A stretch of DNA of 64,000 nucleotides from Escherichia phage APECc02, in the sequence record NC_041869.1; one strand, given 5' to 3'. A program made the position numbers and the translations under genes. The first letter of the stretch is position 1; each line of letters starts with the position of its first letter. Under the pieces are notes generated by a model. It did no database searches, was not told the origin of the DNA, and was given only the letters and a program-made list of their open reading frames with translations. Below are positions 14,486 to 58,739 of the stretch, piece after piece.

Positions 14486-14501
14486 TTTCTGGAGCCTTAA
14501 A

Positions 14502-17623: not shown

Positions 17624-17672
17624 GTGTTGCCAATCTTAATTAGATGTGGTAGAATAGAGTAATCGGAGATAC

Positions 17673-17700: not shown

Positions 17701-17725
17701 TATACTGTTTTGAGGGGTAAAGCTT

Positions 17726-30613: not shown

Positions 30614-30646
30614 ATCTAGATGGTATCGGAGTGTCCTGGAGAGGTT

Positions 30647-37646: not shown

Positions 37647-40600
37647 ATGGCTGATATTAAAGTTGTCAGAATCGAATCTCTTCCTGCCACTACCGCAGTG
37701 ACAGAGGATGATTACCTGGTTGTTCAACAACCAGACCTGACCCGTCGTGTAAAAATTGGCGATGTTGTCCATGTGGATGGGACTGTTTCTCATGTAATCT
37801 CCTTTAAGGAAGGTGGTAAGTTAAACGGCCCAATGGATTTTGCCTACTTCGAAGAGGAAGACCTCTACCTGCGTTGGAAAGGCGAATTTCCACACACTGT
37901 TCCTGCACTATCTTCACCGTACTCCGATGGTGGGATTACTGACGCTGCATGGATGGTATATACAGATCCGTCCTTAAGGGAGGAGCTGGAATCTACCATT
38001 GGCGCATCTATGATCATGACAGCCGAAGGGCAGTCTGTCCAGGATGTAATGGATGTTACTGTTCAAACAGCTAACGATGCTAAAGCACTTGCACAGCGTG
38101 TGGATTTTGGTACAGTGCACACTGTAGGTGATGTTATTCACCTTGATAACTTTGTAGGTCCTGCAGTTATTGAAGAGGGAAGAACCACCAACTACCCTTC
38201 TGTAGCAGCTGGTGAAAAATTTCTGAACGGTGTGGTATCTCGTCGTGATACTACAACTGTTGATGGTATTTTCCGTGGCGCTACCTCCGGGGCCATGTAT
38301 ACCATTGCAGTAACCAATGGTGTAGCAACAACAAAAAGAATAGCACTTCGTGATGAATTTAAACGCCTGGAGGCAAACAGCCCAACAAGAACAGTTATCC
38401 GTGCTGGAGATGATTTAAACACGGCAGGGTACTTGCAGCTTGATGCAACAGGCCGCTGGGGTATGTGGAACCAACAAACAGCCTCGTGGCAACCTCTTGC
38501 TATAGAGCAAGGCGGTACAGGAGCCAGGGATGCCGCAGGTGCACGTATTAACTTAGGGGCTTTCTATAAGCAACGTGCAGCCCTTGAGCCAAATTTCAAT
38601 ATCAATAACTTGACTGGTAATCAGGATGGTGTATACTACCAGCCGATGACTGCTTATGCAACCGAGGCAAATGGTTACCCTGCAGGTTCTGGTGCTGGTC
38701 ACTTGATTGTTTGGCAGAACAATGCTAACGGCGGTACAGGTTGTCGTCAGGAATACTATCCATTCTCTAACGTAGATGTTTGGTATTTGAGAACCTATCA
38801 AGCCAACACAAACCAGTGGACTGCATGGCAGCCGATGGTCAGACCTCGTAACGATGATACCTTTAGATCGCACATCGGTCTCGGGTCTAGAAATTCCCCT
38901 ACCTTCGGGCACCTTTACCTGTCTCAAAGTTCTGCTGATGTTAAGTCAGCATCAGGTATTGTTAACGGGGACAAATACAGCGCTGACGGTGTCCTTGAGC
39001 ATGGTTATAGGATCTACTCTGAGGTAAGAAACGACAATAAGGCTTGGTTGACAATCCACCTGCACAAAGGTGCAAAAGGATCTGAAACCCATAGATATTT
39101 AGGTTTCCGCGAAGACGGTGTATTAGACTGCCCTAAATACATGCAGGTTGGGGATCTTACTGGTCAGCTGACAAACTGGGGACTTGGAGAGTGGATACGT
39201 AGTTCAGGAGCAGAAAGAGGCTTCTGGGGATCTAAGAAAGCCGCCAAGATGGTTATCTGGGATGGCGGGATGGACGAATCCGGTAACGGCACTCTGGAAT
39301 GGGGTGTTTATAACAACCGGAAGGCCAAGTGGGAACCTCTACCTCAAGCCGCAGGTGGCACCGGGGCTACAACTCTAGTAGATGCTCAGAATCTGTTCAA
39401 AGTTCCTATAGCAGCAGGTGTGAAAGACTTCTTAACACTGCCAAGAACCGCAGGGATGGAAGATGGGAAATACTACCCGATCATCGTTAGAACAGATCCG
39501 TACTATGCTCCAGCAACTGGTACTGATATTACCATAGTTACCAGATCGTCATCTGGAAATGACCCTATGAACTGTGCTACCTTACAGTGTCACTATAGAA
39601 CTGGTGGTTGGACAGACAGAGGAGACTCTTTCTACGGGGTAGTAAATTTCTACCAGAATGAAAAAGCAATTCTTGGGATGGTTGCTCCAACAAGGGGTAA
39701 ACAAGAATATGTTGCTTTCTATGCAGAGGCGCGTGCTTTCCCTGTCAGCATATACGCAAGTAGAAATGTTGTCGAGGTGTTTACCAGGGAGCAAGATTAC
39801 CAGGTTGGCTCTGTAACAGACAATCAGGACGGTGTTAAGTTCGTTGCACCTCTCCAGTCAGCAGATTTGAATCTTGCTGTTCTTGGAGATAATAATACCA
39901 ACACCAGACCTATTGTTGACTTCAAAGGGACTTCAGGGTTCTACACTGGTGGCGGCACACAGTGGCACTATATAGGCACTGCTGAACGCTATGCTGTGAT
40001 GAGCAAAATGAATATGCCAAAAGTCGAGCTATGGGCAGACGGTCTTGACTATTTGTGCTACGGCAGTCCTAGAAAGGCGTTATTCTCTAATGCAGGCTTC
40101 CAGTGTGCATCAGATGGGACAGAGGATCTGACTAACGGTACGTTTACCTCTAAATGCGGTAATGGTGCTGGTCTCAAAGGTCAGGCAGAGTTCAGATCTA
40201 CTCCAGAGGCTGGTCAAGTTATTGTTCGTGATGTTGTAGGTTCTGCTCACAGATTCTACAACTTCAACAAAGATGGCACTTTCTCAGCTCCTGGTGGTTT
40301 TGTATGCCACACAGGTGCAGACTGGAACAACCAGTTCGGGAATAACAACCCTTCTAAAATAATGGCTGGTAACGTCAACGGACCTGAAGGTTCCATGGTT
40401 GTAGCAGGGTTGTCGGTTGGTTTTTCTGGAAACTACGCTTTCCAGATGGCAGGTCGTTTAGACCAGCTGTATACTCGTTCCATAGAGCAGGGAAACCACA
40501 GAGCGTGGAACAAAGTTATTCAGCACCGTGGTCAAGGGTTGGGAACTAATGACCTTAACGACTACAAGGCAGATCGTGAAGGGATTTACCATCAAGAGGC

Positions 40601-42086
40601 AAATGCCAACGCCACAGCGGAAAGAAATTACCCACCAGGACAGCAGATGGCTGGTACGCTGATCGTTCTTAGAAACTCCGCTAACGAAGGAACAGGTTGT
40701 ATCCAGATATATAAAATGTATCTTGGTGGAACATGGGAAAGGTATTACAATAACCTTGGCAGCGGAATGGCTTGGAGTCCTTGGAAGAGAACAAGCTTCC
40801 CAGAAAACACAACTGCTCCAGTTATGCCTGACTTGTGGTTGCCTTTAACCTCTAACCTAAAACCTGCATTGGGTGAAGGTGAGATGGTCTTCTCCAGACC
40901 TTCCACAGCAACCTATTTCACTAAGCGGGGTGTTATGGCTGTTGCACAAGCAAACCAACCACGTTTTGAAAGAGATGGGTTGCTTATCGAGGGGCAAAGG
41001 ACAAACCTCATGCTCAACAGTGAGGACCCAAGCAAGTGGGGTGCACAGCAAGCGATTACTGTCGGTAGCACTGTAACAAATACTAACGGCACAAAAGGCG
41101 CAAGATTTACAGTAAACACCACATCCGGTGTAGAAACAACAGCGTTAAACCTTGCCACTGTTCCAGCCACTAGGGGTGCCGATGTGACAGGTGCTGAGAA
41201 ATTCTGTACTGGGTCTATTATTGCAAGGGGAGGTAAAGCGAACCAGAGATTACGTGTAAGATTCGACATGTATGACGGATCCACCACAGTATTCCAAGGT
41301 GACGCTTATGTTAACCTGTCAACACTTGAAGTTAAAACAACAGGGGATGCAGCTGGGAGAATTAAAGTAAAAGCTGAGAGATGGCAAACAGCCGGACCTG
41401 CTTGGGTAAGGATTGCCGCTACGTTTGAGGCAGCGGCCTCTGACAAGAATATCGGTTGCCAGTTCCAGATTGCCCCGCCGGAGAGTTCTCAACATGCCGT
41501 AGGGGATTGGGTTGACGTTGCAATACCTCAGTTTGAGTTGGGATCTTGTGAGTCCTCGTTTATCCCTACAGGGTCTTCACCTGTAACCAGGGCGGCAGAT
41601 CTTTGTAAATTTCCAATGACGGATAACCTAGCGCCCAGACCGTTCACTATCGCCGCTACGGTTGATGCCAACTGGAGAGGCTGGGGCAAAGCTCCTAACG
41701 CAGCTCCTAGGGTTATTGATACAGAAGGTCATCAATCCGGTGCTGCATTTATCATGGGGTTTGGCTCTGCAACAAATATTGCAGATGATGGTTATCCATA
41801 CTGCGATATTGGTGGGTCAACCAGACGTGTCTATGAGATGGCTAAAGCGCGTAAATTGAAGATTGGGTTCAGGATAAAAGGGGACGGTAAAACATGCTCT
41901 TTTGCTAATGGATTGGTAAGTACGGAAACACAGTCTTCTTGGGAGTTCCTGGCAGGAGGCGCTTTCCTCCGCATTGGTGGTAAAACGGCGACAGGTGAAA
42001 GACACCTATTTGGTCATATTAAGGACATAAGAGTTTGGAACTCTGCGTTGACAGATACTCAACTCATGATGGGGAGTGTTGAATAA
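37647..42086 (+). CDS. large tail fibre protein
   Basis: 1479 aa; N-terminal anchor shared with 34344-35012; two copies of the fibre collar-like motif (WQPLAIEQGGTGARDAAGARINLG and WEPLPQAAGGTGATTLVDAQNLF); internal duplicated ~70-aa segment. Confidence 0.65.
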   Translation: MADIKVVRIESLPATTAVTEDDYLVVQQPDLTRRVKIGDVVHVDGTVSHVISFKEGGKLNGPMDFAYFEEEDLYLRWKGEFPHTVPALSSPYSDGGITDAAWMVYTDPSLREELESTIGASMIMTAEGQSVQDVMDVTVQTANDAKALAQRVDFGTVHTVGDVIHLDNFVGPAVIEEGRTTNYPSVAAGEKFLNGVVSRRDTTTVDGIFRGATSGAMYTIAVTNGVATTKRIALRDEFKRLEANSPTRTVIRAGDDLNTAGYLQLDATGRWGMWNQQTASWQPLAIEQGGTGARDAAGARINLGAFYKQRAALEPNFNINNLTGNQDGVYYQPMTAYATEANGYPAGSGAGHLIVWQNNANGGTGCRQEYYPFSNVDVWYLRTYQANTNQWTAWQPMVRPRNDDTFRSHIGLGSRNSPTFGHLYLSQSSADVKSASGIVNGDKYSADGVLEHGYRIYSEVRNDNKAWLTIHLHKGAKGSETHRYLGFREDGVLDCPKYMQVGDLTGQLTNWGLGEWIRSSGAERGFWGSKKAAKMVIWDGGMDESGNGTLEWGVYNNRKAKWEPLPQAAGGTGATTLVDAQNLFKVPIAAGVKDFLTLPRTAGMEDGKYYPIIVRTDPYYAPATGTDITIVTRSSSGNDPMNCATLQCHYRTGGWTDRGDSFYGVVNFYQNEKAILGMVAPTRGKQEYVAFYAEARAFPVSIYASRNVVEVFTREQDYQVGSVTDNQDGVKFVAPLQSADLNLAVLGDNNTNTRPIVDFKGTSGFYTGGGTQWHYIGTAERYAVMSKMNMPKVELWADGLDYLCYGSPRKALFSNAGFQCASDGTEDLTNGTFTSKCGNGAGLKGQAEFRSTPEAGQVIVRDVVGSAHRFYNFNKDGTFSAPGGFVCHTGADWNNQFGNNNPSKIMAGNVNGPEGSMVVAGLSVGFSGNYAFQMAGRLDQLYTRSIEQGNHRAWNKVIQHRGQGLGTNDLNDYKADREGIYHQEANANATAERNYPPGQQMAGTLIVLRNSANEGTGCIQIYKMYLGGTWERYYNNLGSGMAWSPWKRTSFPENTTAPVMPDLWLPLTSNLKPALGEGEMVFSRPSTATYFTKRGVMAVAQANQPRFERDGLLIEGQRTNLMLNSEDPSKWGAQQAITVGSTVTNTNGTKGARFTVNTTSGVETTALNLATVPATRGADVTGAEKFCTGSIIARGGKANQRLRVRFDMYDGSTTVFQGDAYVNLSTLEVKTTGDAAGRIKVKAERWQTAGPAWVRIAATFEAAASDKNIGCQFQIAPPESSQHAVGDWVDVAIPQFELGSCESSFIPTGSSPVTRAADLCKFPMTDNLAPRPFTIAATVDANWRGWGKAPNAAPRVIDTEGHQSGAAFIMGFGSATNIADDGYPYCDIGGSTRRVYEMAKARKLKIGFRIKGDGKTCSFANGLVSTETQSSWEFLAGGAFLRIGGKTATGERHLFGHIKDIRVWNSALTDTQLMMGSVE

Positions 42087-42418
42087 TGAATATTTTTACC
42101 CTTGGATTCACTGACAGGGAGGACTTTAACGGTTTCATGGATGAAATCGGCTTTTATGAGAATGAGGTGTTGCAAAACACCCTTCTTGTAGAGGTTGTCG
42201 GGTTCATTTACACAGAGACTGGAGACACTTATGAGGCCGAAGATGAATTTGGCAACATGGTTGTCTACCCGGTTTGCGAGAAAAGTGAATTGTTTTATGT
42301 TAACGTTCTGGCTCTGGACGAGGATGCAGAAAACATCGTCTCTAAAAGCGGAAAAGTTGTAGATCCGATAAGGTTGAACATGTTCGACCCATCAGTATCC
42401 ACCTTGGAAGCACTTTAA
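42086..42418 (+). CDS. hypothetical protein (possible fibre-associated)
   Basis: 110-aa acidic ORF overlapping the fibre stop, followed by a terminator. Confidence 0.4.
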   Translation: MNIFTLGFTDREDFNGFMDEIGFYENEVLQNTLLVEVVGFIYTETGDTYEAEDEFGNMVVYPVCEKSELFYVNVLALDEDAENIVSKSGKVVDPIRLNMFDPSVSTLEAL

Positions 42419-42425
42419 AGTATTG

Positions 42426-42450
42426 CCCTCGCTTCGGCGGGGGTTTTTTG
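42426..42450 (+). terminator. rho-independent terminator
   Basis: ccctcgc-ttcg-gcggggg hairpin plus TTTTTT. Confidence 0.8.
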
Positions 42451-42456
42451 TTTGTA

Positions 42457-42485
42457 TTGCGTATTAACTTAAAATCTGGTAAAAT
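42457..42485 (+). promoter_or_regulatory. putative promoter (TTGCGT-N17-TAAAAT, TGG upstream)
   Basis: Same tggtaaaata -10 context as the other late-region promoters. Confidence 0.45.
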
Positions 42486-42516
42486 AACTATCATAATTGT
42501 TTAACCTGGAGGCATA

Positions 42517-43107
42517 ATGTTTTTATGGGAAAGGCCTAGATACCTTCCAGATATTAGATTAGAGTTGCTGGCAGATATTGTCACGTTTAAAAGTCCGTTT
42601 ACAGGTAAAACGCAAAAAGTAACCTATGCCACGCCTAACTGGAAAGGCACTTTGACGGTCTCCAATATCAGCGAGTCACAGTTACTAGAGCTTAAGAGCT
42701 TTGTTGATCAGGTGTATAAAGATGGGAACATCTTTCTTATTAAAACTTACGGTCACTCGGTAACAGCTAACGAGCCAATCGCCCTTGGGCCTACTGGTAA
42801 CGACGATTTTTTGAAGACTGTTGGGTGGGAGCCAAACAGAGACATAGCCAGAGCCGGGGATAAAATATCTGTCAATGATGAATTGAAAGTGGTAACAGCT
42901 CCAGTGCGTAGCGATGGTGTTGGGTCTGCTGTTATAGGCATATCTCCAAGACTTAGAAAACCTATTGCCGCAGGGGACACCATGAAGATAATAACTCAAT
43001 CTCCGAAGGGTAGGTTTCATATCAGAGATATTTATAAAATTAAGCAAAAAGTCGATGCTATGCAAAAAGGTGATAATATAGTTATCAACTTCTTTGAGGA
43101 TTTCTAA
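42517..43107 (+). CDS. hypothetical distal tail protein
   Basis: 196-aa ORF, first of four tightly overlapping genes before the 1199-aa protein. Confidence 0.4.
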   Translation: MFLWERPRYLPDIRLELLADIVTFKSPFTGKTQKVTYATPNWKGTLTVSNISESQLLELKSFVDQVYKDGNIFLIKTYGHSVTANEPIALGPTGNDDFLKTVGWEPNRDIARAGDKISVNDELKVVTAPVRSDGVGSAVIGISPRLRKPIAAGDTMKIITQSPKGRFHIRDIYKIKQKVDAMQKGDNIVINFFEDF

Positions 43108-43660
43108 GATGATCAGAGCGCCATTAGATAATTTATTTCTTGAAAAGCTGGAGCTTGATGGTGTTGAGATCTTAATTGCTGCAAAGCTGGAGCTACCGAC
43201 AGGAACTGTCAGGGTGTGCTCAGGCACTGGTGTTGTAGTAATTGAGGGGCAACATTTTATAGGGATAGGTGGATCAGCAACATTAACCGCTGTGTCTGAG
43301 AAAGATGCCACCAACTTCGGATCTGTGGTAGCGACATTGAACGGGTTTGATCCTAAGTATGTGGGTGATCTGCTAAAGACTGAGTATTCTGGTTGTCGTG
43401 CCACGTTGTACATTACCGCTATGGAGAATGGTCTGCCTGTTACAACTAATGGCTTGTTTGACGGCCTTATAACAGATATGGCTATTCAGACAGGTGAGAA
43501 TAGCGCTTTGTCCATATCCATCTCTTCCATCTTTAACAGTTGGTTAAGAGGTTTTCCTTATCGGTACACGGAGGAAAGCCACAGCTCAAGAAACGATAAT
43601 GACAGATTTTTTAAATATGTGGATCAGGTGGCGAGCCGCCCGATCATTTGGGAGGTTTAA
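43094..43660 (+). CDS. hypothetical distal tail protein
   Basis: 188-aa ORF overlapping both neighbours. Confidence 0.4.
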   Translation: MRISKMIRAPLDNLFLEKLELDGVEILIAAKLELPTGTVRVCSGTGVVVIEGQHFIGIGGSATLTAVSEKDATNFGSVVATLNGFDPKYVGDLLKTEYSGCRATLYITAMENGLPVTTNGLFDGLITDMAIQTGENSALSISISSIFNSWLRGFPYRYTEESHSSRNDNDRFFKYVDQVASRPIIWEV

Positions 43661-44085
43661 TGAGCACACACCCTCGTTTAGTGGATTGGCAAGAAAGATT
43701 GTGGAAAGTGTTTGACGAAGAGGCCACCATACCTTTTGAATGGGGATTCCACGATTGTTGCACCTTTGCAGCTAAGTGTGTTGATGCCCAATACGGAACA
43801 GATTTTCTTTCTAACTTCGAAGGAACGTATAAAACAGAGTTGGAAAGCAAAAGATGGTGCATGCTTCGTTTCAAAACTACACACCTGCCTACTATTTTTG
43901 ATCTCTTTATGACTCGACTGGATACTCCTAAACAGGTTCAGCGTGGCGATATTGTTATTTTCGAAGGTCTGAACGGGCTCACCGCTGGTGTGTTCTGGAA
44001 CAACCAGATTTGGGCGAAAGGTGATAAAGGGGTCTTTATGTTCGACATGAAAGATTCTATCGTTGTTGATGTCTGGAGGTATTAA
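43660..44085 (+). CDS. hypothetical protein, possible NlpC/P60-like cysteine peptidase
   Basis: ATG at 43660 with GGGAGG RBS; FHDCCTFAAKC could carry a papain-like catalytic Cys. Weak. Confidence 0.35.
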   Translation: MSTHPRLVDWQERLWKVFDEEATIPFEWGFHDCCTFAAKCVDAQYGTDFLSNFEGTYKTELESKRWCMLRFKTTHLPTIFDLFMTRLDTPKQVQRGDIVIFEGLNGLTAGVFWNNQIWAKGDKGVFMFDMKDSIVVDVWRY

Positions 44086-47000
44086 TGCCAATTGCAATGA
44101 TTGATAACATCGTTGCTTCTGCAAGATCTTCAAGTTATGACTGGAACGCATCCAAGGCAGCTCTGGCTGACAGCCTGAACACTGTGACCACCAGAACTTT
44201 GGATAAGATTTTTGAGGGCAACAAATCTTACAGAAGTCAGCAAGATAGACAAAAGCTTCTCAGATCTTCTGCTGCACCTTGCTCTGTAGTGTATGGAAAG
44301 ACACGCACATCTGGATTGCTTGCGTTTTTGGAGCAGGATAGCGACAGAACCCTCCATTGTGCTATTGTTCTTGCCAATCACCCTCTGGAAGGTATAGAAG
44401 ATATACTTATCGACGGTAATCCTATTTCCTCGTATGGAGATCTGGTATCGTGGGAGCTACATAACGACAGAAAAACATCTGATCCTTTCATGGGTACACA
44501 CTGCCCATCATGGTCACCTGACATGATAGGTAGAGGGATCAGTTGGCTACGTGCCAGCTTCAGGTTTGACCCTAACAAGTTTCCTTTTGGGTTGCCAAAC
44601 GTTACACTCGTTAAGGTTGGTAAAAAATGCTATGATCCTCGCATCAGTAAAGAGGTGTATACCAATAACGCGGCCTTGGTGATTCTAGACTATTTAAGAA
44701 CGTACCTTAAATGTCCTGACGAAACCATCAACTGGGAGTCCTTCAAGGAGGCTGCTAACATATGCGACGAGGCGGTAAAAAACGCAGACGGAACCAGTGA
44801 GCGCCGATACACCATTAATGGCGAGTTTGACATGGACGAGGCTCCGGCAAGCATTATGGCAGAAATGCTGAAAGCTTGTGGCGCAGATCTCAGCTATGTA
44901 GCTGGTAAGTATGGTTTGCTGGTTGGTGCATACTATGGCCCGGCAACAATGACGCTGAGTGAGGATTGTGTCTGTGGTGAGGTCAAGATCTATCCGGAAG
45001 CCTCATTTGACAAAAGATCCAACACAATAACTGGCAGATTCACTAGTCCGACCAAAGGGTATTCTGAAACAGATTTTCCATCAGTGTTTGTCCCAGAGTG
45101 GATAGAGAAGGATGGAGAAAGAAAGATAATCGATATAGACTATCGCTTTGTTACCAGTCCTTATCAAGCTCAGCGTGTTTCTGCAATCTTCCTAAGACGT
45201 GCCAGAGCTGGCAGGATTATTGAAGTCACCTGCAATATGCGAGGTTTCAAATTTAAACCTGGTCGTTACGTTACAATGGACCTCCCAAGTATTGGTATAG
45301 TGGGCCAAGAAATGAGAGTTCTTGAATGGGAGTTTACCAAAAAGGGTGGTGTCAAGGTAAAACTTCGTCAAGATGCTAAAGAGTGGAATGATGCCACAGG
45401 ACAACTTCCGGATTCTGGCGATGTAGATATTCCAATATCTCCATCTGGTGTAGCTCAACCGCAAAACTTCAGATATTCCGTTCTCCAAGCTGGAGAAGTA
45501 ACTCACGGTGTTTTGGCTTGGGACAACGTTGGGACCTACGCTCAAAATATTGTGCAGGTAAGAAAGAACGGAGAGATTGTTTGGACAGCACAAACAGTTG
45601 AGCAGTTTGTCCGAGTAGAAGGCTTGACCAAAGGGTCATACACAGCAACCGTGGTTGCAACATCTTATAAAGGTGGCGTATCTCCGGAAGCATATTGTGA
45701 GTTCAACATTCAGGCACCTGAAGCTCCTGTTTCTGTGGAGGTTAAACAGGGATACTTTGCTATTACCCTGATCCCGCACAGCAGAGACTTGGCTAGTGTA
45801 AGCACCCAGTACGACTTTTGGACATCTGGGATGACAAGATTGCCAGATACCAGTGATGCAACCGTTACTTCAAAAGCCACTCGTATGGGTGTTGGTTCAA
45901 CTTGGACATCTGAAGGTCTGCAGAACGATAAGATTTATTACTGGTATATCAGGACAACAAATGCTTTTGGTTCATCTGCTTTTGTGGAGTGTGCAGCCCA
46001 CTGTTACACATCCATAGAAGATCTTATGCCACAGATTGATGCTGAGTTCAAAAAGACAGAGACTTATAAAGAGCTTACCGCCAATCTTGATAATGCAGTC
46101 AAGGAAATGGATAAAAATGTTGGTGCAGTCAATGACCGTGTTACTAGCATTTTTGAAGAGCTTGGGGATACAATAGAGGGTGTTGTCAGAGAGACGACAG
46201 AAAAATTTACAGGGGTTAATGGAGAAATTTCTGCCCTTAACAGTAAGCTGGTAGCAGCTCAGCAATCCTTTGACGATAAACTTGCAGCAGAGTCTGGTAG
46301 GCTTGGGTCACTAATCGAGACAACAAATAGATCAACCGTTGATCTTGTTAATCGTAAAACTCAAGCATTGAGTGAGCAAATAACTGCAACGCAAGGTACT
46401 CTGCGGGAAGAGTTGAAGAACACTGAGAGCAAACTTAACTCCTCTATTCAAGAAACCAACAAGGCAACAACCGATCTGCTAAATAAGACAACGGAAGCTA
46501 TTAAGCAGGATCTGGTGGCAGCTACAGGGAAGATCACCAAGCTGGAAGATGATGTGCAGAAAGAGGTTGCCAATCTGCAAGCATCTATTCAAGAAACTAA
46601 TAGTACAACAGTTGATCTTGTTAATAATACAGCCACAGCGATCCGTCAAGAACTTACCTCTGCAAAACAAGAAATTGTTGACGAAATGGGTAATATTGAT
46701 GAGCTCAGGGCTACAGTATCTAATACCTCTAAAGCTGTAACAACACTTGAGGGTAAAATAGATGCTCAGTGGGGAGCTAAGATTCAGGTAGACTCCGCAG
46801 GGAATAAATATGTTGCAGGTATCCAGCTGGGGATGGAAGGATCTGGGGGCCAAGTTCAATCCTACTTCATGGTTAGTGCAAACAATTTTGCGGTATACAA
46901 CCCCGGAAATGGAACAGCAACCCTTGCTTTCGCAATCAAGAACAACCAAGCGTTCTTGAAAGACGCTTTTATAGAGAATGGCACGATCTCCTCTGCCAAG

Positions 47001-47684
47001 ATCGCACAAGAAATTTCGTCAAACAACTACGACGGCAACGGGTACCATAAATACGGTTGGTATATTAACAAGAACGGGCACGCCCAATTCATGGATGTGT
47101 GGGTGAAAGGCAACATCAACGCCAGTTCTGGTAACTTCACAGGGGCAGTTAACGCCACTAGTGGTACCTTCCGTGGGGATGTTTATGCCAATAATGGTAG
47201 CTTTAGAGGCACCATAGATGCAACCGGAGGTACCTTCCGTGGTCGTGTAGAGGCTTCTGTTATCCGCGCTAACCAGTTCGAAGGTGCAATTGTTGCACAC
47301 AGGACTTACGGGGATTGTGCCCCAGTATATAACTCCCAGCAAAGGGTTTGCCGTTGGAGGTGGAGATACGTAGATAACGTTTCAGGTCAGGGTAAGAACG
47401 TAACATTCTTCTTTAAACTGAATGGTACTCTTGCCAGCTCCCAACTGAATGCATGGATAGCTGGTCATCAGATCCTTGCTGGCAAGAAGTATTTTAACGA
47501 CAACAACGGCATGTGTGCGGTAGGGATAACAGGTCTGGGTGAACAAACTATAGACATTGTTATCGAGATTTACACACCGTGGTCAACGTCGAGCGTGACA
47601 GGTGTCACAATCTCCTGTCCTACTGTGATAGTAAGTCGTTCAAACTCTAGCTTCCAGGGACCTTGGAACGAGTCTCACGACTAA
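44085..47684 (+). CDS. large tail tip / host-specificity-like protein
   Basis: 1199 aa; three tandem repeats (ETTNRSTVDLVNRKT, QETNKATTDLLNKTT, QETNSTTVDLVNNTA) in a coiled-coil-like region and C-terminal GNFTGAVNATSGTFRGDV...GGTFRGRV repeats. Confidence 0.55.
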   Translation: MPIAMIDNIVASARSSSYDWNASKAALADSLNTVTTRTLDKIFEGNKSYRSQQDRQKLLRSSAAPCSVVYGKTRTSGLLAFLEQDSDRTLHCAIVLANHPLEGIEDILIDGNPISSYGDLVSWELHNDRKTSDPFMGTHCPSWSPDMIGRGISWLRASFRFDPNKFPFGLPNVTLVKVGKKCYDPRISKEVYTNNAALVILDYLRTYLKCPDETINWESFKEAANICDEAVKNADGTSERRYTINGEFDMDEAPASIMAEMLKACGADLSYVAGKYGLLVGAYYGPATMTLSEDCVCGEVKIYPEASFDKRSNTITGRFTSPTKGYSETDFPSVFVPEWIEKDGERKIIDIDYRFVTSPYQAQRVSAIFLRRARAGRIIEVTCNMRGFKFKPGRYVTMDLPSIGIVGQEMRVLEWEFTKKGGVKVKLRQDAKEWNDATGQLPDSGDVDIPISPSGVAQPQNFRYSVLQAGEVTHGVLAWDNVGTYAQNIVQVRKNGEIVWTAQTVEQFVRVEGLTKGSYTATVVATSYKGGVSPEAYCEFNIQAPEAPVSVEVKQGYFAITLIPHSRDLASVSTQYDFWTSGMTRLPDTSDATVTSKATRMGVGSTWTSEGLQNDKIYYWYIRTTNAFGSSAFVECAAHCYTSIEDLMPQIDAEFKKTETYKELTANLDNAVKEMDKNVGAVNDRVTSIFEELGDTIEGVVRETTEKFTGVNGEISALNSKLVAAQQSFDDKLAAESGRLGSLIETTNRSTVDLVNRKTQALSEQITATQGTLREELKNTESKLNSSIQETNKATTDLLNKTTEAIKQDLVAATGKITKLEDDVQKEVANLQASIQETNSTTVDLVNNTATAIRQELTSAKQEIVDEMGNIDELRATVSNTSKAVTTLEGKIDAQWGAKIQVDSAGNKYVAGIQLGMEGSGGQVQSYFMVSANNFAVYNPGNGTATLAFAIKNNQAFLKDAFIENGTISSAKIAQEISSNNYDGNGYHKYGWYINKNGHAQFMDVWVKGNINASSGNFTGAVNATSGTFRGDVYANNGSFRGTIDATGGTFRGRVEASVIRANQFEGAIVAHRTYGDCAPVYNSQQRVCRWRWRYVDNVSGQGKNVTFFFKLNGTLASSQLNAWIAGHQILAGKKYFNDNNGMCAVGITGLGEQTIDIVIEIYTPWSTSSVTGVTISCPTVIVSRSNSSFQGPWNESHD

Positions 47685-47692
47685 CCTTTAAA

Positions 47693-47720
47693 GCCCCGCT
47701 TCGGCGGGGTTTATTTTTAT
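47693..47720 (+). terminator. rho-independent terminator
   Basis: gccccgc-ttcg-gcggggt hairpin plus T-rich run. Confidence 0.8.
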
Positions 47721-47727
47721 GCTCAGA

Positions 47728-47756
47728 TTGACTATTGTTACAAAATTTGGTAAAAT
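47728..47756 (+). promoter_or_regulatory. sigma70-like promoter (TTGACT-N17-TAAAAT)
   Basis: Near-consensus hexamers with TGG upstream of the -10. Confidence 0.55.
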
Positions 47757-47789
47757 ACCTTGTAGAGATTTTCATACCGGAGGAGTGAC

Positions 47790-49280
47790 GTGGCTAAGTA
47801 TGGATTGACAGAGGCTGGTTTCGTTATACCAACCCTAAATGACCTAATCGTTGAAACTAAGCAAAGCCTGATCCGTGCTTTTGGCGAAAACTTCAACGTA
47901 CAGAGTAACTCCGTTGCAGATAAGCTGACCACTATCTTCAACGAGCGAGAGTATCAACTTATTCTTATGGCAGCATCTGTATACGCATCACAGACGCTGT
48001 ATGGGGCAGAAGGTATTTATCTGGATGAGCTTCTTGGAAGACAGGGTATTTACCGAAGAGGCCGTTCTAAATCATCAGGTACCTGCCAGTTGACGATCAA
48101 CACAACTGTGCCGTACAATATGATTTATGATTCCAAAACTTATACGCTGGATAGTGGCAACTTTGTTCTTAGCAATGATGTGCAAGTGGCAGGGAATCTT
48201 ATTGCTCACAGAATAAATGCTCCAGACCTGAGGATTGGTAAATACAACTTTCAAATTACCAACCAGACAGATGGAAGTATCAAAACAAAAAGTTTGGTTT
48301 TAACAGATAAGGCTCTGGACTCTTCTGATCTGCCAAGCTTTTACGGAGAGATTAAGCAATTCATTGTCGATAATACAACCCTGTTGAACGACGATTTGAT
48401 TCAGATCGATATGTTGACAGGAACGTTGTGGATAGGGTACAATTCGAATCTTGATCAAGTTGGACTTAATAGTAGGGTAGATTTCAGAGTATCCCCGATT
48501 GTAGGGGAAAGAACTATCACCCTGGATGTTATCGCTAACGAGGCTGGTGAGCTGTCAAGAGAGGCAGAAACCGTGACAACAATGTCACCTACTCCCAGTG
48601 GATTTATCAAGCTTACCAACAGAGAAAGATTCAATGAGGGCAGGGATGTTGAGAAAGACTCAGAGTATCGCTTAAGAGCTTCCAGCACAAAACAGTTAAC
48701 ATCTAAGGCTACCCGTCCTGCAATCCTTAGCGCTGTAAGCGAGGTGAAAGGTGTTGAGAAAGTGAGAGTGTTCTCTAACAATACCGATAAAACTGATGCT
48801 AAAGGTATACCTCCTTACAAGTTCCAAGTGGTTGTGTTTGGTGGTGCAACGGAGGACATTTGCCAAGCACTTTACCAAACTATAGCCTGTACGAACAGGA
48901 CTTATGGTAATATTTTCTACGATGTCACTACATCTGACGGTCAAACTGAAAGAATTTATTACTCCAAGGCAAATACCTACCGCTTGGATGTAAGAATTAC
49001 CTACTCCGGTGCTGCGCTTTCCACAACCGAAAAAGATGCCATTGTAGAGGCTCTTTTGCAGGTTGTTAACGGACTGGATGTTGCAGATACGTTATACAAT
49101 ATCCAATTGGTCGGTGCTGCATCCGCTGCTGTGTCAATAGGCAGATTTAATAGACTGGTAATTCAAGTTAAATCCGTAGGAGCTTCTGATGAAGCTTACA
49201 CTACAAACGATATTGTTGCGAACATGACCGAGGTGTTTGACCTCGACGAAAGTAATATAACTTTCCAACAAACTATTTAA
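47790..49280 (+). CDS. hypothetical baseplate wedge protein (possibly J-like)
   Basis: 496 aa, GTG start with GGAGG RBS; assignment from size and position upstream of the fibre genes only. Confidence 0.4.
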   Translation: MAKYGLTEAGFVIPTLNDLIVETKQSLIRAFGENFNVQSNSVADKLTTIFNEREYQLILMAASVYASQTLYGAEGIYLDELLGRQGIYRRGRSKSSGTCQLTINTTVPYNMIYDSKTYTLDSGNFVLSNDVQVAGNLIAHRINAPDLRIGKYNFQITNQTDGSIKTKSLVLTDKALDSSDLPSFYGEIKQFIVDNTTLLNDDLIQIDMLTGTLWIGYNSNLDQVGLNSRVDFRVSPIVGERTITLDVIANEAGELSREAETVTTMSPTPSGFIKLTNRERFNEGRDVEKDSEYRLRASSTKQLTSKATRPAILSAVSEVKGVEKVRVFSNNTDKTDAKGIPPYKFQVVVFGGATEDICQALYQTIACTNRTYGNIFYDVTTSDGQTERIYYSKANTYRLDVRITYSGAALSTTEKDAIVEALLQVVNGLDVADTLYNIQLVGAASAAVSIGRFNRLVIQVKSVGASDEAYTTNDIVANMTEVFDLDESNITFQQTI

Positions 49281-49291
49281 GGCGGCGAGAT

Positions 49292-49978
49292 ATGGCAGAG
49301 ATTAAGTCGGATGTTAACCACATCCACACTCTGCCAGATTTTGTTCAGGGGGGTCTTGACTACCTGCCTGGAGATTTTCTGGCTGAGAAGGTTAATTTAG
49401 TCACATTCTTAACCGTATACCTTAAAAGGTTGGAGGATGTTGATAAGATGCTGGTAGGTTTGGCTGAAGGAAGATTGCTTAACAATGCCAGCGGAAGATA
49501 CCTTGACGAAGTTGGTAATCAACTTGGTATTCTTAGGAATGGACTTTCAGATGCTGATTTTCGTGCCACACTAATTATTCAGCAGGCCGCAGCATCAAGG
49601 GGCGGGACTCGCGAAGATGTCATCTCCACCTTGCGACAATTGTTCGGAAGAGACAATTTCGATACGTGGAAAGGAGACAACTTCAGGTTTGACATAAATA
49701 TTAGAAAAACTTGCTTTGACATATTGCAGTCTATAGATCAGATCTTAGATATGCTACCATTGCCTTGTCATTTGCGTCTTACAGAATCGCAAGGGCAAGC
49801 TTTTGGTTTTGAAGGGGACTCTACAGCTCTTGGCTTCGGATCAGTGTGGGAAGAAAACCAATTCGGAGTTGGTGGGCTGGCTACTTTGCTATATGTTCCT
49901 GACGTAAGACCTGATTGGGACACCACAACCATTTATTGTGAAAGTATTACAGTAAACGCAACTAGACAGGAGGGTTAA
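49292..49978 (+). CDS. hypothetical baseplate protein
   Basis: 228-aa ORF; stop overlaps the next start. Confidence 0.4.
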   Translation: MAEIKSDVNHIHTLPDFVQGGLDYLPGDFLAEKVNLVTFLTVYLKRLEDVDKMLVGLAEGRLLNNASGRYLDEVGNQLGILRNGLSDADFRATLIIQQAAASRGGTREDVISTLRQLFGRDNFDTWKGDNFRFDINIRKTCFDILQSIDQILDMLPLPCHLRLTESQGQAFGFEGDSTALGFGSVWEENQFGVGGLATLLYVPDVRPDWDTTTIYCESITVNATRQEG

Positions 49979-52050
49979 TGGCAACAGCTGTTTTTAAACC
50001 TTACCGTGATTACTCTACAATGGCTGCACAGTTTCACTACCGAACAGTTCAGGATACTGCCGTTCCTGGTAGGGATTATAATCATGTTGAGGGCGATGTA
50101 ACTATCCCAATTGGGGCAACCAGTATTGAGATCCCCGTGGAAATTGTTGACAAATTACCCAACAGGTTACCAAGAAGCTTCTTTATGGAGTTTTCATCAA
50201 AATCTCAAGGGGTGATGATTGGGACACAAAGGGCGAAATGTACAATAGTTTCAGATGAGAATCTTGACAGGATATCCTGGGATACTGTTGAGGAGAGAAT
50301 GTTTCACCCAAGATATTGGGTTACAACCACTCAGCAGACTGAAAGTACCTGTATTGTTGCAGATGACAACTGTTGTATTAACCGTTTAGTGTCAAGAACA
50401 TATGGAGGTATGGCTGGGTGCATTTGGGAAACAGTTGACAAGTATGACCATTTCGGTATTGGGTTTGATGATCACTATGAGATGAGAAACACCAAGCTTT
50501 GGTTCAGAATGTCAATAACCAATGCCAGCAACTTCTCCACTCCTGAAAAGATGATTATGACTGTAGACCTTGTTGATGGCACAATCATCTATGTTCCTTT
50601 AGCTCAATATGCTGTCAGCATCTCAGAGGATAAGAATGTTGCAGAGATTCATATTGATTTCGAGGACTGCGTCGGGATGGATCAGAACAACAACATGATG
50701 GGTGTTGATCCTCGGCAGGTGAGAAGGATTTTAATACCGCTTATGCCTAAAGACTGGGTAAGTAATAGCACAGACCCGAGAACGGAAAATGTAGAGTGTG
50801 AGTTGCGCCTAGATCTGCTTCAGCCAGACACGGGCTGGAAAATGATGCAACTTAACAATATTCAGGTTAAAGAGCACGACGTCGGGATCTGCACCGCATA
50901 TGACGATATGTGGAACGTATCTCCTTTAAGGGTGTTGAACAATATCAAGCGTCTGGGCTATACCGGAACCATAAACCACTATGTTGGTATGAGTCATTAT
51001 TATGACTACACATGGTCAGGAACCCAATGGTCTATAAACAGAACAGGGGCGCTAAACGCTGCAGCTTATAAATGGCATGATGATTTTATGTACAATGCCA
51101 AACGACACAACTTCGACGTTATGCAGTCTGTAAGTTTTGAGCTTTACAGCGATGCCTGTCCGTTGGAATGGACCCAAAGAGACTGGAACGATAACTACGC
51201 TAAAACAGGGTATACACCTTGTAGCTACCTCCTGTCTCCAACCATTGAAGAGGGTATGAATTTCCTTACGGCAGTATTTAAGAATTTTGCATCAGCCGCT
51301 ATGAGAAACAACCTGCCAGTGATTATGCAGGTTGGTGAACCGTGGTGGTGGTTCAATACCGATACTCGTAGACCTTGTATTTATGATTACCCTACAAAAC
51401 AGGCGTTTTATGATGAGACAGGTGAGTATGCATTAGATATTGGGACTATTGACGATCCTAAAACTGGCGGTGTTTACGACAAGTATGTAGCATTTTGTCG
51501 TGGTAAGCTTGGCGCTCGTATTGCGGCTATTTCAAAGGCAATAAAGGCACACGCTGCATCAGCTCAGATGACAGCTTTACTGTTTTTCCCAACTATTATG
51601 GAAACCGAGCTTACGCAAAAGCTGAACCTTGCCGACCAATATAAAAAAGAAGCAGGTGCTCTTGATTTCTTCTGCACCGAGTGCTACGATTGGGTGATGC
51701 AGGGAGGTATTGAAAAGGCAAAAGAGTCTGTAAACATACCTATCGTTAAGTTAGGTTGGCAACCGTCTGAAATACAATACCTTGCAGGGTTCGTTCCTAG
51801 TAAAGAGCTTGCTCCGGTATATGGCTACGACCCAACCAGGAATTACCAAGAATTTTTATGGAGATGTATTTGCGGAAACATGGCAACTATAGAGTATAGA
51901 TATCCTGAGGTAAAACAGTATGTGTGGGCATACCCGCAAGTAATGTCTGACAGCATCACTGTTACCGCTAGAGATTCTACCGTGCTTCATATGGGGCAGG
52001 TTGCTCTGAAAGGGTATGTAGAAGATGTTGTCCCGCCAGACTTCTCATAA
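49978..52050 (+). CDS. large tail protein, possible glycoside-hydrolase-like domain
   Basis: 690 aa; Trp-rich segment MQVGEPWWWFNTD reminiscent of TIM-barrel glycosidase active-site regions. Speculative. Confidence 0.4.
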   Translation: MATAVFKPYRDYSTMAAQFHYRTVQDTAVPGRDYNHVEGDVTIPIGATSIEIPVEIVDKLPNRLPRSFFMEFSSKSQGVMIGTQRAKCTIVSDENLDRISWDTVEERMFHPRYWVTTTQQTESTCIVADDNCCINRLVSRTYGGMAGCIWETVDKYDHFGIGFDDHYEMRNTKLWFRMSITNASNFSTPEKMIMTVDLVDGTIIYVPLAQYAVSISEDKNVAEIHIDFEDCVGMDQNNNMMGVDPRQVRRILIPLMPKDWVSNSTDPRTENVECELRLDLLQPDTGWKMMQLNNIQVKEHDVGICTAYDDMWNVSPLRVLNNIKRLGYTGTINHYVGMSHYYDYTWSGTQWSINRTGALNAAAYKWHDDFMYNAKRHNFDVMQSVSFELYSDACPLEWTQRDWNDNYAKTGYTPCSYLLSPTIEEGMNFLTAVFKNFASAAMRNNLPVIMQVGEPWWWFNTDTRRPCIYDYPTKQAFYDETGEYALDIGTIDDPKTGGVYDKYVAFCRGKLGARIAAISKAIKAHAASAQMTALLFFPTIMETELTQKLNLADQYKKEAGALDFFCTECYDWVMQGGIEKAKESVNIPIVKLGWQPSEIQYLAGFVPSKELAPVYGYDPTRNYQEFLWRCICGNMATIEYRYPEVKQYVWAYPQVMSDSITVTARDSTVLHMGQVALKGYVEDVVPPDFS

Positions 52051-52062
52051 TCAGGAGATAAA

Positions 52063-53103
52063 ATGTCAAAACCTAGTTTTCCATTAGAGATTTGGGCAGA
52101 GGAGGATCAGGTTCTGCCTAACACCCACAGACAGAACAGGCTACGCCCGATTGATGATTTGTGGAGAAAAGGTTGGGATCTTGGTCAAAAGCCCTCATGT
52201 GAAGAACTTAACTATATTTTCAATATGCTCGGGACTTGGGCAAAATACATTGCTGACGAGCAGATCCCCGCTCAAGAAGGCCGTTATCTGGTACGTGATA
52301 ATAACTTGAGCGATCTTTTGAACATCCCTGTTGCCCGTAGAAACCTTGGGATTATCACTAAGGAAGAGGCAGACGCCAGGTATGTAAAAGTTACAGGTGA
52401 TACAATGACAGGCCCCTTGGGGTTGCAACGTATCAACTTTAAAGCTGCCGAGACAGATAAGGCTTGGATAGAGACAACTATTGGCCCAGATAAGACAACT
52501 CTCGACTTTGGGTTAAGTGATAATACCGGGTCGTTTGATGATGGTGGTACATCTACAGTGGATGCGTTCCGTTGGAGATTCCAGCCAACTCAGCCGGATA
52601 TTAATCCAGAGTTCACTTTGATGTACCTTAACGCGATCACGGCTAACCGTGCGCTGTTGAAAGTGGTAGGCAATGTTGAAGTTGTCGATAACATGAGGTG
52701 CAATAACCTTACTATCAGCAATACAGCGACATTCACCAACTGTAATGTGGCTAGTCAGTTGACGGCTGGGTCAGTGTATGTTAATGGTGGTGCAAGTTGT
52801 GACAGTATGGTTGTAAGAAGCCAGCACTGTGTTGTCGGTAACAGAAATGTGGTTCGCTCTGTGAACGGAGTGACGGCTAACGGTAACGGTGATGTAACGA
52901 TCACTATCCCGCAGACAGGTGTGCAAGACATCAGAATCGGTGCAAGACTTGTGGACGGAGTTTCTGAATCTCCAATCCGCAACGGCTACGTTGTCACAGG
53001 CTGGCATTTCGGTGACAAAAAAGAGATGCGTGGTTCAACCTACTGGGCAGGACCTTTACAAAAACTTGTAAATGGTCAATGGATCACTGTTAATTATGCA
53101 TAG
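52063..53103 (+). CDS. tail fibre protein (paralogue 1)
   Basis: 346 aa; collar-like motif ARRNLGI...EADARYV...GDTMTGPL; C-terminus YWAGPLQKLVNGQWITVNYA; followed by a Tfa-type chaperone gene. Confidence 0.7.
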   Translation: MSKPSFPLEIWAEEDQVLPNTHRQNRLRPIDDLWRKGWDLGQKPSCEELNYIFNMLGTWAKYIADEQIPAQEGRYLVRDNNLSDLLNIPVARRNLGIITKEEADARYVKVTGDTMTGPLGLQRINFKAAETDKAWIETTIGPDKTTLDFGLSDNTGSFDDGGTSTVDAFRWRFQPTQPDINPEFTLMYLNAITANRALLKVVGNVEVVDNMRCNNLTISNTATFTNCNVASQLTAGSVYVNGGASCDSMVVRSQHCVVGNRNVVRSVNGVTANGNGDVTITIPQTGVQDIRIGARLVDGVSESPIRNGYVVTGWHFGDKKEMRGSTYWAGPLQKLVNGQWITVNYA

Positions 53104-53117
53104 ATCGGAGGACTAGC

Positions 53118-53702
53118 ATGAAAATACTTCAAGAGTTTAAACTTTACCAACCGGGATCTGGCGAATACCGCACCAACAAGGAAACCAAGGAGCTGACCCC
53201 TCAAGAGGTTGAGGATTACACAGCATACACTGGGTATTTTTTACGTAATGATGATGGCGATTGGTATGTGCAGTCACGAACATTGCGACAAGAAAATCCG
53301 GGTTGTATCTTCCTACTTGTTGACGAGAAGGGAATTCTTAAGACATCTACAGAAGAACCTGATGCCTTATGGCCTGCTCCAGGTCTTCGTGTGGTTATCG
53401 CCAAAAAAGAAGAGGTACCAGAAAACATTATGCTTCACCACGACGCTTTGCGTTTAGTTGGTGATGAATTTGTCACAGATAATGAATTCTTTGTTCAACA
53501 GGCAGAGGGTGTCATAGAGACAGAACTTGCTTGGGCTACTGCTAGAATTGGTGCCTATCAAGACGTGATTGACCTTGAATATGATCTTACTGATGACCAG
53601 AAACGTAACATCAGAGATTTGAAAATGTACAGGGTAAAACTTCTTGAAATAGATACATCTAAAGCCCCTGACATTTTCTTCCCGGAGCGACCTACCCTCT
53701 AA
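53118..53702 (+). CDS. tail fibre assembly chaperone (Tfa-like)
   Basis: 194 aa; C-terminal LAWATARIGAYQDVIDLEYDLTDDQKRNIRDLKMYRVKLLEIDTSKAPDIFFPERP matches the conserved Tfa C-terminal domain pattern. Confidence 0.7.
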   Translation: MKILQEFKLYQPGSGEYRTNKETKELTPQEVEDYTAYTGYFLRNDDGDWYVQSRTLRQENPGCIFLLVDEKGILKTSTEEPDALWPAPGLRVVIAKKEEVPENIMLHHDALRLVGDEFVTDNEFFVQQAEGVIETELAWATARIGAYQDVIDLEYDLTDDQKRNIRDLKMYRVKLLEIDTSKAPDIFFPERPTL

Positions 53703-57257: not shown

Positions 57258-58623
57258 ATGCTTCCAATCCCTTTGCTAAAACTTGGTCGTCATTTCCTCG
57301 ATAAGAGGGGTGGAATTAAGGAACTTGCTGTTCTGTCATACCCAATAGACAACAGTGATGGTACAAGCAACACAGTATCCTATGTAAATAGCTTAGCTAT
57401 ACTTTTTGATGATGGTCAGCTTAATATTACTGGCTATAATAGGTTCGGAGAGTGTCGGACTGGAGATCTTGATACAATAAACTATCCTAATGAGGCAGCT
57501 TGGAACGTAGACCATGTTTGGAGAGCTGACCGTGCATTTGTAATCCGCACATTCGATAATAAATTTTTCTATATTGGTTGCACAGCTGGTCTTATCGGGA
57601 TCGGAGGCAGCAGGTGGAAACGATGTTTGTGTCAGAGAGTGGGCACCTTTGCCGGAACAGATCGTAACAGGGTTGCATTTGGACACCCATCCTGAGAGAC
57701 TTGTTGAAGTAATGGGTGGCGTAAACAATACAGTGTGGGTAATTGCTGCACCAGAGGCTGATGGTATGCTTCACCTGTACGGCTCTGGCAATAATACTTA
57801 CGGCTCTCTTCATGTTGACAAAAGTCAACACGCTACTCCAGTTAAGATCGGTGAAACATCTGAAAGTCCAGAGACAGGTCCTTGGAAAAATCCAAGAATT
57901 AATTGTGAAGTTCATGACAACTCGGTTATTTTTGGTGGTCCTAACGGATTCTGGATTGCAGGTTACGATTTCTTAAGAAATAACAGCAAAAACACACTAG
58001 TTTATCCAGCCGAGCATGTGACTCTTGACCAGTTTAAAGGCATCCCGGTGGGCGAGACATGGAAAGGGTTCATGTGTGGACCTAATGGTGCAATTATAGC
58101 CACAGAAAGGATGCACAAACCTGATGACCAACAGCTTGTTAATGTGTTTTATGGTCAGGATGTTTGGGGTGACGACACGTGGAGAAGCCTTAACATCACC
58201 TATACCCATGAAGTAATTATGGCTCGCGGGTACGGGACTAGTGGAATTTTCTTCAATAATGGTACAAAACAGTACCGTGGTTTCTCCAGAAACCTGTGTA
58301 ACGATATTGGTGCTCAATCTGCTAATAATAGTCCTAGGGCCAATTTTATTCATTACAGAGCGCTGGCAACAGCTAAGTTTGTTGAACAGACAGAGCCAGT
58401 AAGCTGGACAGAAAGCGTTTATTTTCAAGGGATCCACAGGGAAGGTTTCTTAGGCACATTCTGTGTGGTAAATGGAAAGCTTTGGTGGTCAGGAATACCA
58501 CGTGGTAGTTTTTCAGGATCTAATAACCTCTTTAGCGGCAGACTTAACAGCCAAGGGTTGCTAAAGTTTTCTCAGGTATTAAATGGAATCTACCTGTCCA
58601 AAGTATTTCATGGAAGCAAATAG
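57258..58623 (+). pseudogene. RCC1-like repeat protein gene, reading frame disrupted by a +1 change near 57606-57620
   Basis: ATG 57258 with GGAG RBS. Frame 0 carries repeat-like GYNRFGECRTGD and FFYIGCTAGLIGIGG then stops at 57695; frame +1 is open from 57562 and continues the same repeat type (LHLYGSGNNTYGSLHV) to 58623. Confidence 0.45.
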
Positions 58624-58739
58624 GTGATAACAAGCTGCTGGTTACCCCTGCCTGTCAGTTCAACGCAACTCTTAACGTTGATCCTGCTGTTGCGGCAAAC
58701 TCAGCTAAAGCTTCTGACTTCTCTGTGTCTAACACTGCT

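Follow-up and report, generated by a model that had tools for sequence, protein, structure and literature searches.

What do the seven genes at positions 42517-52050 of Escherichia phage APECc02 encode, and are there among them enzymes for degrading the cell wall or the capsule that are carried on the tail, as the original prediction, made from the letters of the sequence, had suggested? The DNA that we analysed (the window; 64 000 nucleotides (nt) of sequence record NC_041869.1) has in this region seven confirmed open reading frames (ORFs) on the + strand, with products of 196, 183, 141, 1199, 496, 228 and 690 amino acids (aa). Judged from sequence comparisons, they make up three units: a cassette of four tail-tip genes (42517-47684), a pair of baseplate wedge genes (47790-49978) and the gene of the 690-aa protein (49978-52050). 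The label 'distal tail block' initially given to the region lumps these three unrelated units together. In the explanation that we favour, with a probability of about 0.65, the cassette would build a fibre of the J type located off the tail axis, the 141-aa product, a DUF6950 protein, would be an assembly factor, the 496- and 228-aa proteins would be a wedge pair and the 690-aa protein would be a barrel that binds and cleaves the NGR glycan.

Across its whole length, an 11.2-kb segment around the region shares 97–98.5% nt identity with more than 100 published genomes of Vequintavirus (among them rV5, FFH2, pangalan, and BASEL Bas55 and later); the matched records are contractile-tailed coliphages with genomes of 131–140 kb. 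The order of the genes is the same as that of gp34-gp40 in rV5 and of their counterparts in FFH2, pangalan and Bas55 (JeffSchatz), and every gene of the region has a strong PHROG or Pfam match. On these comparisons, 42517-52050 belongs to an rV5-like (Vequintavirus) myovirus and forms the mid-part of its gene cluster for baseplate and tail fibres.

The puzzle of the region is its first unit, a complete tail-tip cassette of siphovirus type maintained by selection in a contractile-tailed phage. Its four genes, all on the + strand, encode a distal tail (Dit)-like protein (42517-43107; 196 aa; rV5 gp40), whose PHROG family is named 'distal tail protein' (phrog_1302, E 5e-50); a protein in the tail-tip hub position, that of lambda gpL (43109-43660; 183 aa; rV5 gp39; phrog_2048, 'tail protein', E 9e-68); the DUF6950 protein (43660-44085; 141 aa; rV5 gp38), with an NlpC/P60 fold and a PHROG family of unknown function; and a J-like tail-tip/fibre protein (44085-47684; 1199 aa; rV5 gp37), with Pfam domains Ig_J_second and Phage_Tail_Tip and the PHROG name 'central tail fiber J'. 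Apart from the Dit-family PHROG match, the 196-aa protein matched nothing in Pfam, in PDB or among DUF2460 profiles. More generally, for the 196- and 183-aa proteins we found no meaningful PDB match by sequence or profile, no Pfam match (E up to 10) and no NCBIfam match, and pairwise BLASTP showed no similarity to lambda gpM and gpL. Alignments of Dit-like and hub-like proteins with the DUF2460 domains (Dit of the gene transfer agent (GTA) type) that are fused to homologues of the TIM barrel discussed below were not significant (hhalign). In profile searches with these two proteins and with DUF6950, the cassette families are currently without a relative of solved structure.

Outside Vequintavirus the nearest relatives of the cassette are siphoviruses. 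JenP2 (Queuovirinae, Nonagvirus, 59.8 kb; gp17-gp20) and Klebsiella phage K21lambda1 have four genes of equal order and size directly after the tape measure gene; in Yersinia phage PY54, which the GenBank notes of rV5 already cite for these genes, the cassette likewise follows the tape measure. The aa identity to JenP2 is 32% for the Dit-like protein, 38% for the hub-position protein (JenP2 gp18), 46% for DUF6950 and 49–54% for J. The J of the window differs from siphovirus J in having additional coiled coil and a C-terminal extension of 200 aa. We surveyed the synteny of 82 DUF6950 loci (two annotated siphoviruses and 80 viral contigs of 5–82 kb). Dit-like and hub-like genes were found directly upstream, and J directly downstream, of DUF6950 in 77–80 of these loci: the Dit-like gene occupies its cassette position in 80 and the hub-position gene in 77. 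A large ORF stands directly upstream of the Dit-like gene in 50 loci and is mostly of tape-measure size (800–1130 aa). Among phage records, all DUF6950 matches with at least 90% identity belong to Vequintavirus and all others fall below 60%; the non-Vequintavirus records among the matches listed have genomes of 39–84 kb.

What role could such a cassette have in a phage with a tail end of its own? The cassettes of JenP2, K21lambda1 and PY54 close a non-contractile tail, whereas that of the window is separated from the tape measure by 12 kb and belongs to a sheathed phage that has its own hub and spike, and its upstream neighbour is a gene for a 1479-aa fibre rather than the tape measure. The genes for the central parts of the tail are located upstream on the same strand: tail sheath (25394-26770), tail tube (26781-27254) and tape measure (28205-30541), the last followed by the phage's own Dit_like tube initiator (30620-31531), Pam3 gp18-type plug (31544-31924), hub (31924-32928) and spike with the phi92 spike N-domain (32928-33605), and then by a sheath-initiator-like protein (33618-34334). 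Several fibre proteins are encoded upstream of the region on this strand as well. The central baseplate of phage phi92 was modelled by cryo-electron microscopy in 2026 (PMC13450770), and the upstream tail genes of the window match it part for part. The cassette itself is absent from phi92, where the corresponding place holds gp142, the endosialidase gp143 and gp144.

We place the cassette off the axis because the central axis holds a hub and spike of phi92 type and because the cassette sits where phi92 has other fibre genes. It would build a receptor-binding appendage at the periphery of the wedges, with J as the fibre and the two small proteins as its base or adaptor. A central position for J was considered and rejected, as the window encodes a full hub and spike set matching the solved central baseplate of phi92. 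Literature searches for a baseplate structure from a Vequintavirus, or for a J-like protein in myoviruses, found neither, and only the phi92 structure surfaced; the BASEL authors describe it as unclear which genes build which fibre of the Vequintavirinae.

The J-like protein, which has a PDB match to lambda J, starts with a hub and FN3/Ig region (residues 48-660), followed by variable coiled-coil repeats (660-880), the Phage_Tail_Tip domain (878-1017) and a C-terminal part (1016-1199) composed of 11-aa beta repeats and an extra domain. The initial description of this protein as repeat-rich is correct at the protein level and incorrect at the DNA level. Of three coiled-coil repeats of ∼44 aa, two have the exact motif TNxxTxDLxN (at residues 747 and 791) and the third, near 836, is a variant; residues 1016-1059 contain four GxFxG repeats of 11 aa. 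Tandem repeats of note were not found in the DNA of the region. The J proteins of the window and of rV5 (gp37, 1279 aa) share 84% of their residues overall and almost all of them outside the coiled coil; the difference of 80 residues is due to gain or loss of ∼44-aa repeats in the coiled-coil stalk, the sole variable part. A coiled coil of varying length between conserved ends is what one would expect of a working J fibre. In mass spectrometry (MS) of rV5 virions J was detected with 4.2% coverage and weak peptides.

With coverage this thin, one could suppose that the cassette is a recombination leftover from a Queuovirinae-like phage, with no role in the rV5 virion, particularly as siphoviruses infecting the same host carry its nearest relatives beyond Vequintavirus and as phi92-like phages manage without it. 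The state of the genes argues otherwise. All four are intact in more than 110 genomes, and two diverged rV5-like contigs, L009 and L011, retain the cassette with identical gene lengths and architecture. Synonymous divergence (pS) between the window and these contigs is 0.59–0.81, i.e. at saturation, while non-synonymous divergence (pN) is 0.07–0.11 for the Dit-like, hub-position and J-like genes and 0.30 for DUF6950; with synonymous sites saturated, the pN/pS ratios are 0.10–0.13 for the first three and 0.39 for DUF6950. The genes also have the tight spacing of translationally coupled genes, with good ribosome-binding sites, and the variation of the J coiled coil between conserved ends, as well as the J peptides seen in virions, speak for a protein in use. 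From these divergence values the cassette appears to be under purifying selection rather than decaying, and we regard its origin as a functionless leftover as very improbable.

What would the third cassette gene contribute to the proposed off-axis appendage? Its product had been proposed to be an NlpC/P60-type peptidase on account of an HDCC segment (43750-43761, + strand; residues 31-34), and the fold part of this proposal stands. The only Pfam match of the 141-aa protein is to DUF6950 (PF22262; 115.5 bits against a cut-off of 27). A comparison with PF00877 (NLPC_P60) gave no match at E up to 1, and 20 of 45 DUF6950 relatives matched PF00877 below threshold (best E 0.0029). The AlphaFold2 model (built with 45 sequences; predicted local distance difference test score 95.5), which is of very high confidence, has a papain-like alpha+beta fold, in which a single NlpC/P60-like domain fills the 141 residues. 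Searches with DUF6950 against PDB produced nothing meaningful, and a fold search against BFVD yielded generic NlpC/P60 proteins and further members of DUF6950 and nothing else. In profile alignments C33, the first Cys of HDCC, falls on the catalytic Cys of MepS and of lambda gpK.

The catalytic part of the proposal fares worse. In both alignments T108 stands on the catalytic His, and in that with MepS W118 stands on the third residue of the triad. Across the 45 DUF6950 members these two columns contain Thr, Ala or a gap and Trp, Val, Ala or Ile, respectively, and none of the 45 has a His in either; neither is there any other column with conserved His, as H31 is a His in only 21 members. Eight residues do not vary (F26, W28, G29, D32, C33, Y57, G96, W139), and 42 of the 45 also have C34. 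To the bacterial NlpC/P60 endopeptidases MepS, LytE and CwlO the identity is 13–20%, with their His-His pair replaced in DUF6950 by Thr/Ala/gap and Trp/Val/Ala. A Cys-His dyad is the minimum for the NlpC/P60 class of enzymes; since the DUF6950 family has no His partner for its Cys, it lacks a defining feature of family C40, and the name 'peptidase' is doubtful because both catalytic His positions hold no His. Based on the model and the alignments, we characterize the 141-aa protein as having an NlpC/P60 fold that retains the nucleophile Cys and has lost both catalytic His. DUF6950 is probably not a cell-wall hydrolase, and as a statement about catalysis the label 'cell wall hydrolase' given to DUF6950 proteins is probably wrong.

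A competing explanation takes the 141-aa protein as an active peptidoglycan peptidase of the virion that aids in crossing the wall, next to the 690-aa protein as a depolymerase of capsule or exopolysaccharide (EPS). The fold and the invariant Cys at the nucleophile position are in its favour, and the BASEL records label the 141-aa protein 'cell wall hydrolase protein'. It has to be reconciled, however, with the missing His in 45 of 45 members, with the window protein's failure to match PF00877 even at E 1 and with proteomics, as rV5 gp38, the homologue of the 141-aa protein, is not among the 19 proteins found in rV5 virions (a shallow MS set). Of the two proteins that were predicted to be carried on the tail, the homologue of the 690-aa protein is present in rV5 virions and that of the 141-aa protein was not seen. 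DUF6950 is also the fastest-evolving gene of the cluster: between the window (43660-44085) and L009 (10001-10426) it has 57% aa identity, compared with 81–92% for its neighbours, although the family-invariant residues are kept. Furthermore, an off-axis cassette would leave a wall-piercing enzyme without obvious use. We consider the peptidase explanation to be quite unlikely.

A different role is suggested by lambda gpK, a protein of the C40 family with a C-terminal NlpC/P60 domain, which has the same gene position upstream of J and whose motifs FE(H/W)GxxDC and AQ(P/R)GDV align with those of the 141-aa protein. Lambda gpK is an assembly factor that is not known to be present in mature tails. 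At the position of Thr108 in the 141-aa protein gpK still has a His, and gpK has an N-terminal JAB/MPN domain, for which the 141-aa protein has no room; the gene order of hub position, 141-aa protein and J is nonetheless as for gpK. We saw no gpI-like gene, and no ORF at all, between the 141-aa gene and J. We favour an assembly role because the His residues are missing, the protein was not detected in rV5 virions, its evolution is fast and its position is that of gpK; by analogy, the DUF6950 protein would be a dedicated assembly factor for the J appendage, as gpK is for lambda J. One could speculate further that rV5-like myoviruses took over the whole siphovirus tail-tip complex (Dit, hub and J) as a lateral appendage along with a Cys-only NlpC/P60 assembly factor. 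We offer this tentatively, at somewhat less than even odds; if true, a structure made to close the tail tube has been re-purposed as a side fibre.

The second unit follows the J gene on the + strand. The 496-aa protein (47790-49280), with PHROG assignment and a Pfam Baseplate_J match, is 32% identical to phi92 gp145 over 511 columns, and the 228-aa protein (49292-49978; phrog_4056) is 29% identical to phi92 gp146 over 201 columns. As gp145 and gp146 are wedge subunits in phi92 (PMC13450770), we characterized the two proteins, by homology, as their baseplate wedge equivalents.

Is the third unit, then, an enzyme? The 690-aa protein (49978-52050, + strand), a virion protein corresponding to rV5 gp34 and phi92 gp142, was initially guessed to contain a glycosidase TIM barrel from its segment MQVGEPWWW (51325-51351; residues 450-458), and at the level of predicted fold this guess is well supported. 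Pfam domains are Calx-beta (17-91), NCTSP_N (108-284; PF23844, 48.4 bits) and TIM-barrel_NCTSP (299-658; PF23845, 268.4 bits, E 1e-79), with cut-offs of 27 for the two latter families. The protein is 42% identical to phi92 gp142 over the full length, and rV5 gp34 was found in virions by proteomics (10.3% coverage) and is annotated as a structural protein. The structures that it matches are barrels of glycoside hydrolases; in the case of PgaB the match is to the hydrolase domain (best 6au1_B) and not to the deacetylase domain. The (beta/alpha)8 barrels of GH42 beta-galactosidases, of the PgaB/BpsB GH153 domain, of GH5/GH113 mannanases and of GH164 have 7–13% identity to the 690-aa protein, for which the second catalytic residue is putative. 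A (beta/alpha)8 barrel of glycoside-hydrolase type is thus well supported by modelling.

Conservation was assessed in 39 homologues with 27–81% identity, a set that extends from proteins of enterobacterial phages to Sphingomonad proteins in which these domains are joined to a distal-tail domain (DUF2460). Invariant in all 39 are Y308, D309, D310, H334, Y335, G337, M338, S339, E388, Q451, G453 and E454, and also P455, W456, W457, W458, Y469, D470, N550, E568, Y570 and W572; these positions lie at or just after predicted barrel strands, and strand ends are the usual location of a TIM-barrel active site. The Glu of GEPWWW, E454, comes directly after predicted strand 449-453 (beta-4) in a Glu-Pro motif like that of the clan GH-A acid/base residue, which makes it a candidate acid/base residue. 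E388 and E568 follow predicted strands counted as beta-3 and beta-6, while clan GH-A expects the nucleophile Glu after beta-7. The invariant E454, the matches to glycoside-hydrolase barrels and the presence of gp34 in virions would equally suit the depolymerase half of the peptidase explanation considered above.

Alternatively, the 690-aa protein could be a lectin-like binder only, or a deacetylase, as in the BASEL annotation, rather than a glycosidase. It has been published as a 'glycan deacetylase' tail fibre or as a receptor-binding protein (e.g. PMC8669472 and bioRxiv 10.64898/2026.04.02.716166). A sequence search of PDB gave a single match, N4 gp64 (E 8e-24), the minor partner of gp65 in the sheath heterodimer; the N4 relatives of the 690-aa protein are structural sheath subunits (PMC13434306). 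Yet we observed no Pfam match to CE4/NodB at E 0.01 or better and no stand-alone CE4 structure in the top 60 structural matches; because of this, and because the likeness to PgaB lies in the hydrolase domain, the label 'deacetylase' is unsupported and appears to derive from the name of PgaB. Binding of a single glycan, for its part, is hard to square with D309, D310, E388, E454, D470 and E568 being invariant in the 39 homologues. We judge a pure binder or a deacetylase to be unlikely. The match to the glycoside-hydrolase domain of PgaB changes the assay that is appropriate for this NGR-binding protein.

Both wecB and nfrB, and hence the NGR glycan, are required by the Vequintavirinae, by phi92-like phages and by N4 (PMC8669472), and a 2026 preprint assigned NGR binding to the 690-aa protein (bioRxiv 10.64898/2026.04.02.716166); the receptor used by these phages is the core of lipopolysaccharide (LPS), according to the BASEL paper. 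In the glycosidase reading the appendage formed by the 690-aa protein would bind NGR and probably cleave rather than deacetylate it, letting the baseplate reach the LPS core receptor. The same preprint took GMSHY to be an NGR-specific signature that arose by convergence. In the window this motif is at 50986-51000 (residues 337-341), with G337, M338 and S339 invariant, and H340 nearly so, in the 39 homologues including the Sphingomonad DUF2460 fusions. GMSHY thus looks like a family-wide motif, marking homology rather than receptor specificity, and is probably part of the active site.

The 690-aa protein is homologous to both non-contractile sheath proteins of N4, gp64 and gp65. The barrel profile carried by one chain on a myovirus baseplate in the window is split in N4 over two proteins, gp65 (15044-19192, - strand) and gp64 (13758-15011, - strand): residues 373-415 of gp65 correspond to model positions 4-46 (FDD...GMSHY; beta-1 and beta-2) and residues 108-406 of gp64 to positions 60-347 (GEPWWW and EDYDW). 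Since the profile is divided between the two subunits, the heterodimer may reconstitute in trans the barrel that rV5 gp34 and phi92 gp142 carry in a single chain. Separately, we observed that many Sphingomonadales genomes (homologues P0033-P0128) have NCTSP_N and the TIM barrel fused to DUF2460/TIGR02217, the distal tail protein of GTA type, i.e. the barrel is built into Dit. JenP2 gp23 (688 aa), considered as a counterpart of the 690-aa protein by size, was rejected as it has no similarity.

Several observations weigh against the explanation by three units with an off-axis J appendage and an NGR-cleaving barrel. The Dit and hub labels come from PHROG names and synteny, and the presence of J in virions rests on 4.2% coverage by weak peptides. 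The virion placement of the 196-, 183- and 141-aa proteins is one that we infer, the MS set for rV5 comprising only 19 proteins. In DUF6950 the invariant Asp-Cys and the near-invariant second Cys argue for some chemistry or a cofactor, so non-canonical catalysis may be possible. The catalytic roles of E454, E568 and E388 are deduced from conservation and predicted secondary structure, and cleavage of NGR by this protein family is a prediction.

The phage, its genes and predictions of enzyme type were already public; GenBank labels include 'cell wall hydrolase protein', 'glycosidase and deacetylase domains' and 'EPS depolymerase activity'. Our additions are corrections of these labels and the explicit statement that a myovirus has a complete, selected siphovirus tail-tip cassette.

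As to the gene calls, the ORFs and the HDCC and MQVGEPWWW motifs were located as had been claimed. The start of the 183-aa gene was corrected: the mechanical ORF starts at TTG 43094, while the true start is ATG 43109, since the JenP2 homologue aligns from that Met and GenBank records begin there. The original prediction also counted four overlapping genes before the 1199-aa gene; there are only three in the range, with a 1-nt gap between the first two (43107/43109) and, at 43660 and at 44085, overlaps of 1 nt (TAATG).

A fourth ORF, of 110 aa (42086-42418, + strand; phrog_1361, unknown function), lies outside the region, 98 nt upstream. We rejected it as a cassette gene, as diverged relatives have the cassette without it: L009 and L011 lack the 110-aa ORF and their fibre bears a Peptidase_S74 chaperone domain instead. 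For the 110-aa protein there was no Pfam match (E up to 10) and no NCBIfam match. Judging from these genomes, it probably belongs with the upstream allele of the 1479-aa fibre and may be a separate fibre chaperone. The fibre allele at 37647-42418 consists of the 1479-aa protein, without a Peptidase_S74 domain, and then the 110-aa ORF; the rV5 fibre has 1272 aa, and the fibres of L009 and L011, with the S74 intramolecular chaperone domain, have 1273 and 1265 aa.

Two observations concern sequence records. We found that 18 unannotated GenBank records of the MG0656xx series, titled 'Campylobacter phage' (host C. jejuni), are ∼98% identical to 42000-53200 of the window; their host labels look doubtful. 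Downstream of the region, the counterpart of rV5 gp27, a giant Ig-like fibre or structural gene (1878 aa; 5.6 kb in relatives), takes up only ∼2.7 kb at 57258-59930 and is split into three ORFs (145, 349 and 401 aa). The junction near 58550 is not spanned in one piece by any phage record; the gp27 region of the window may have undergone a deletion inside the gene, or a repeat may have collapsed in the assembly.

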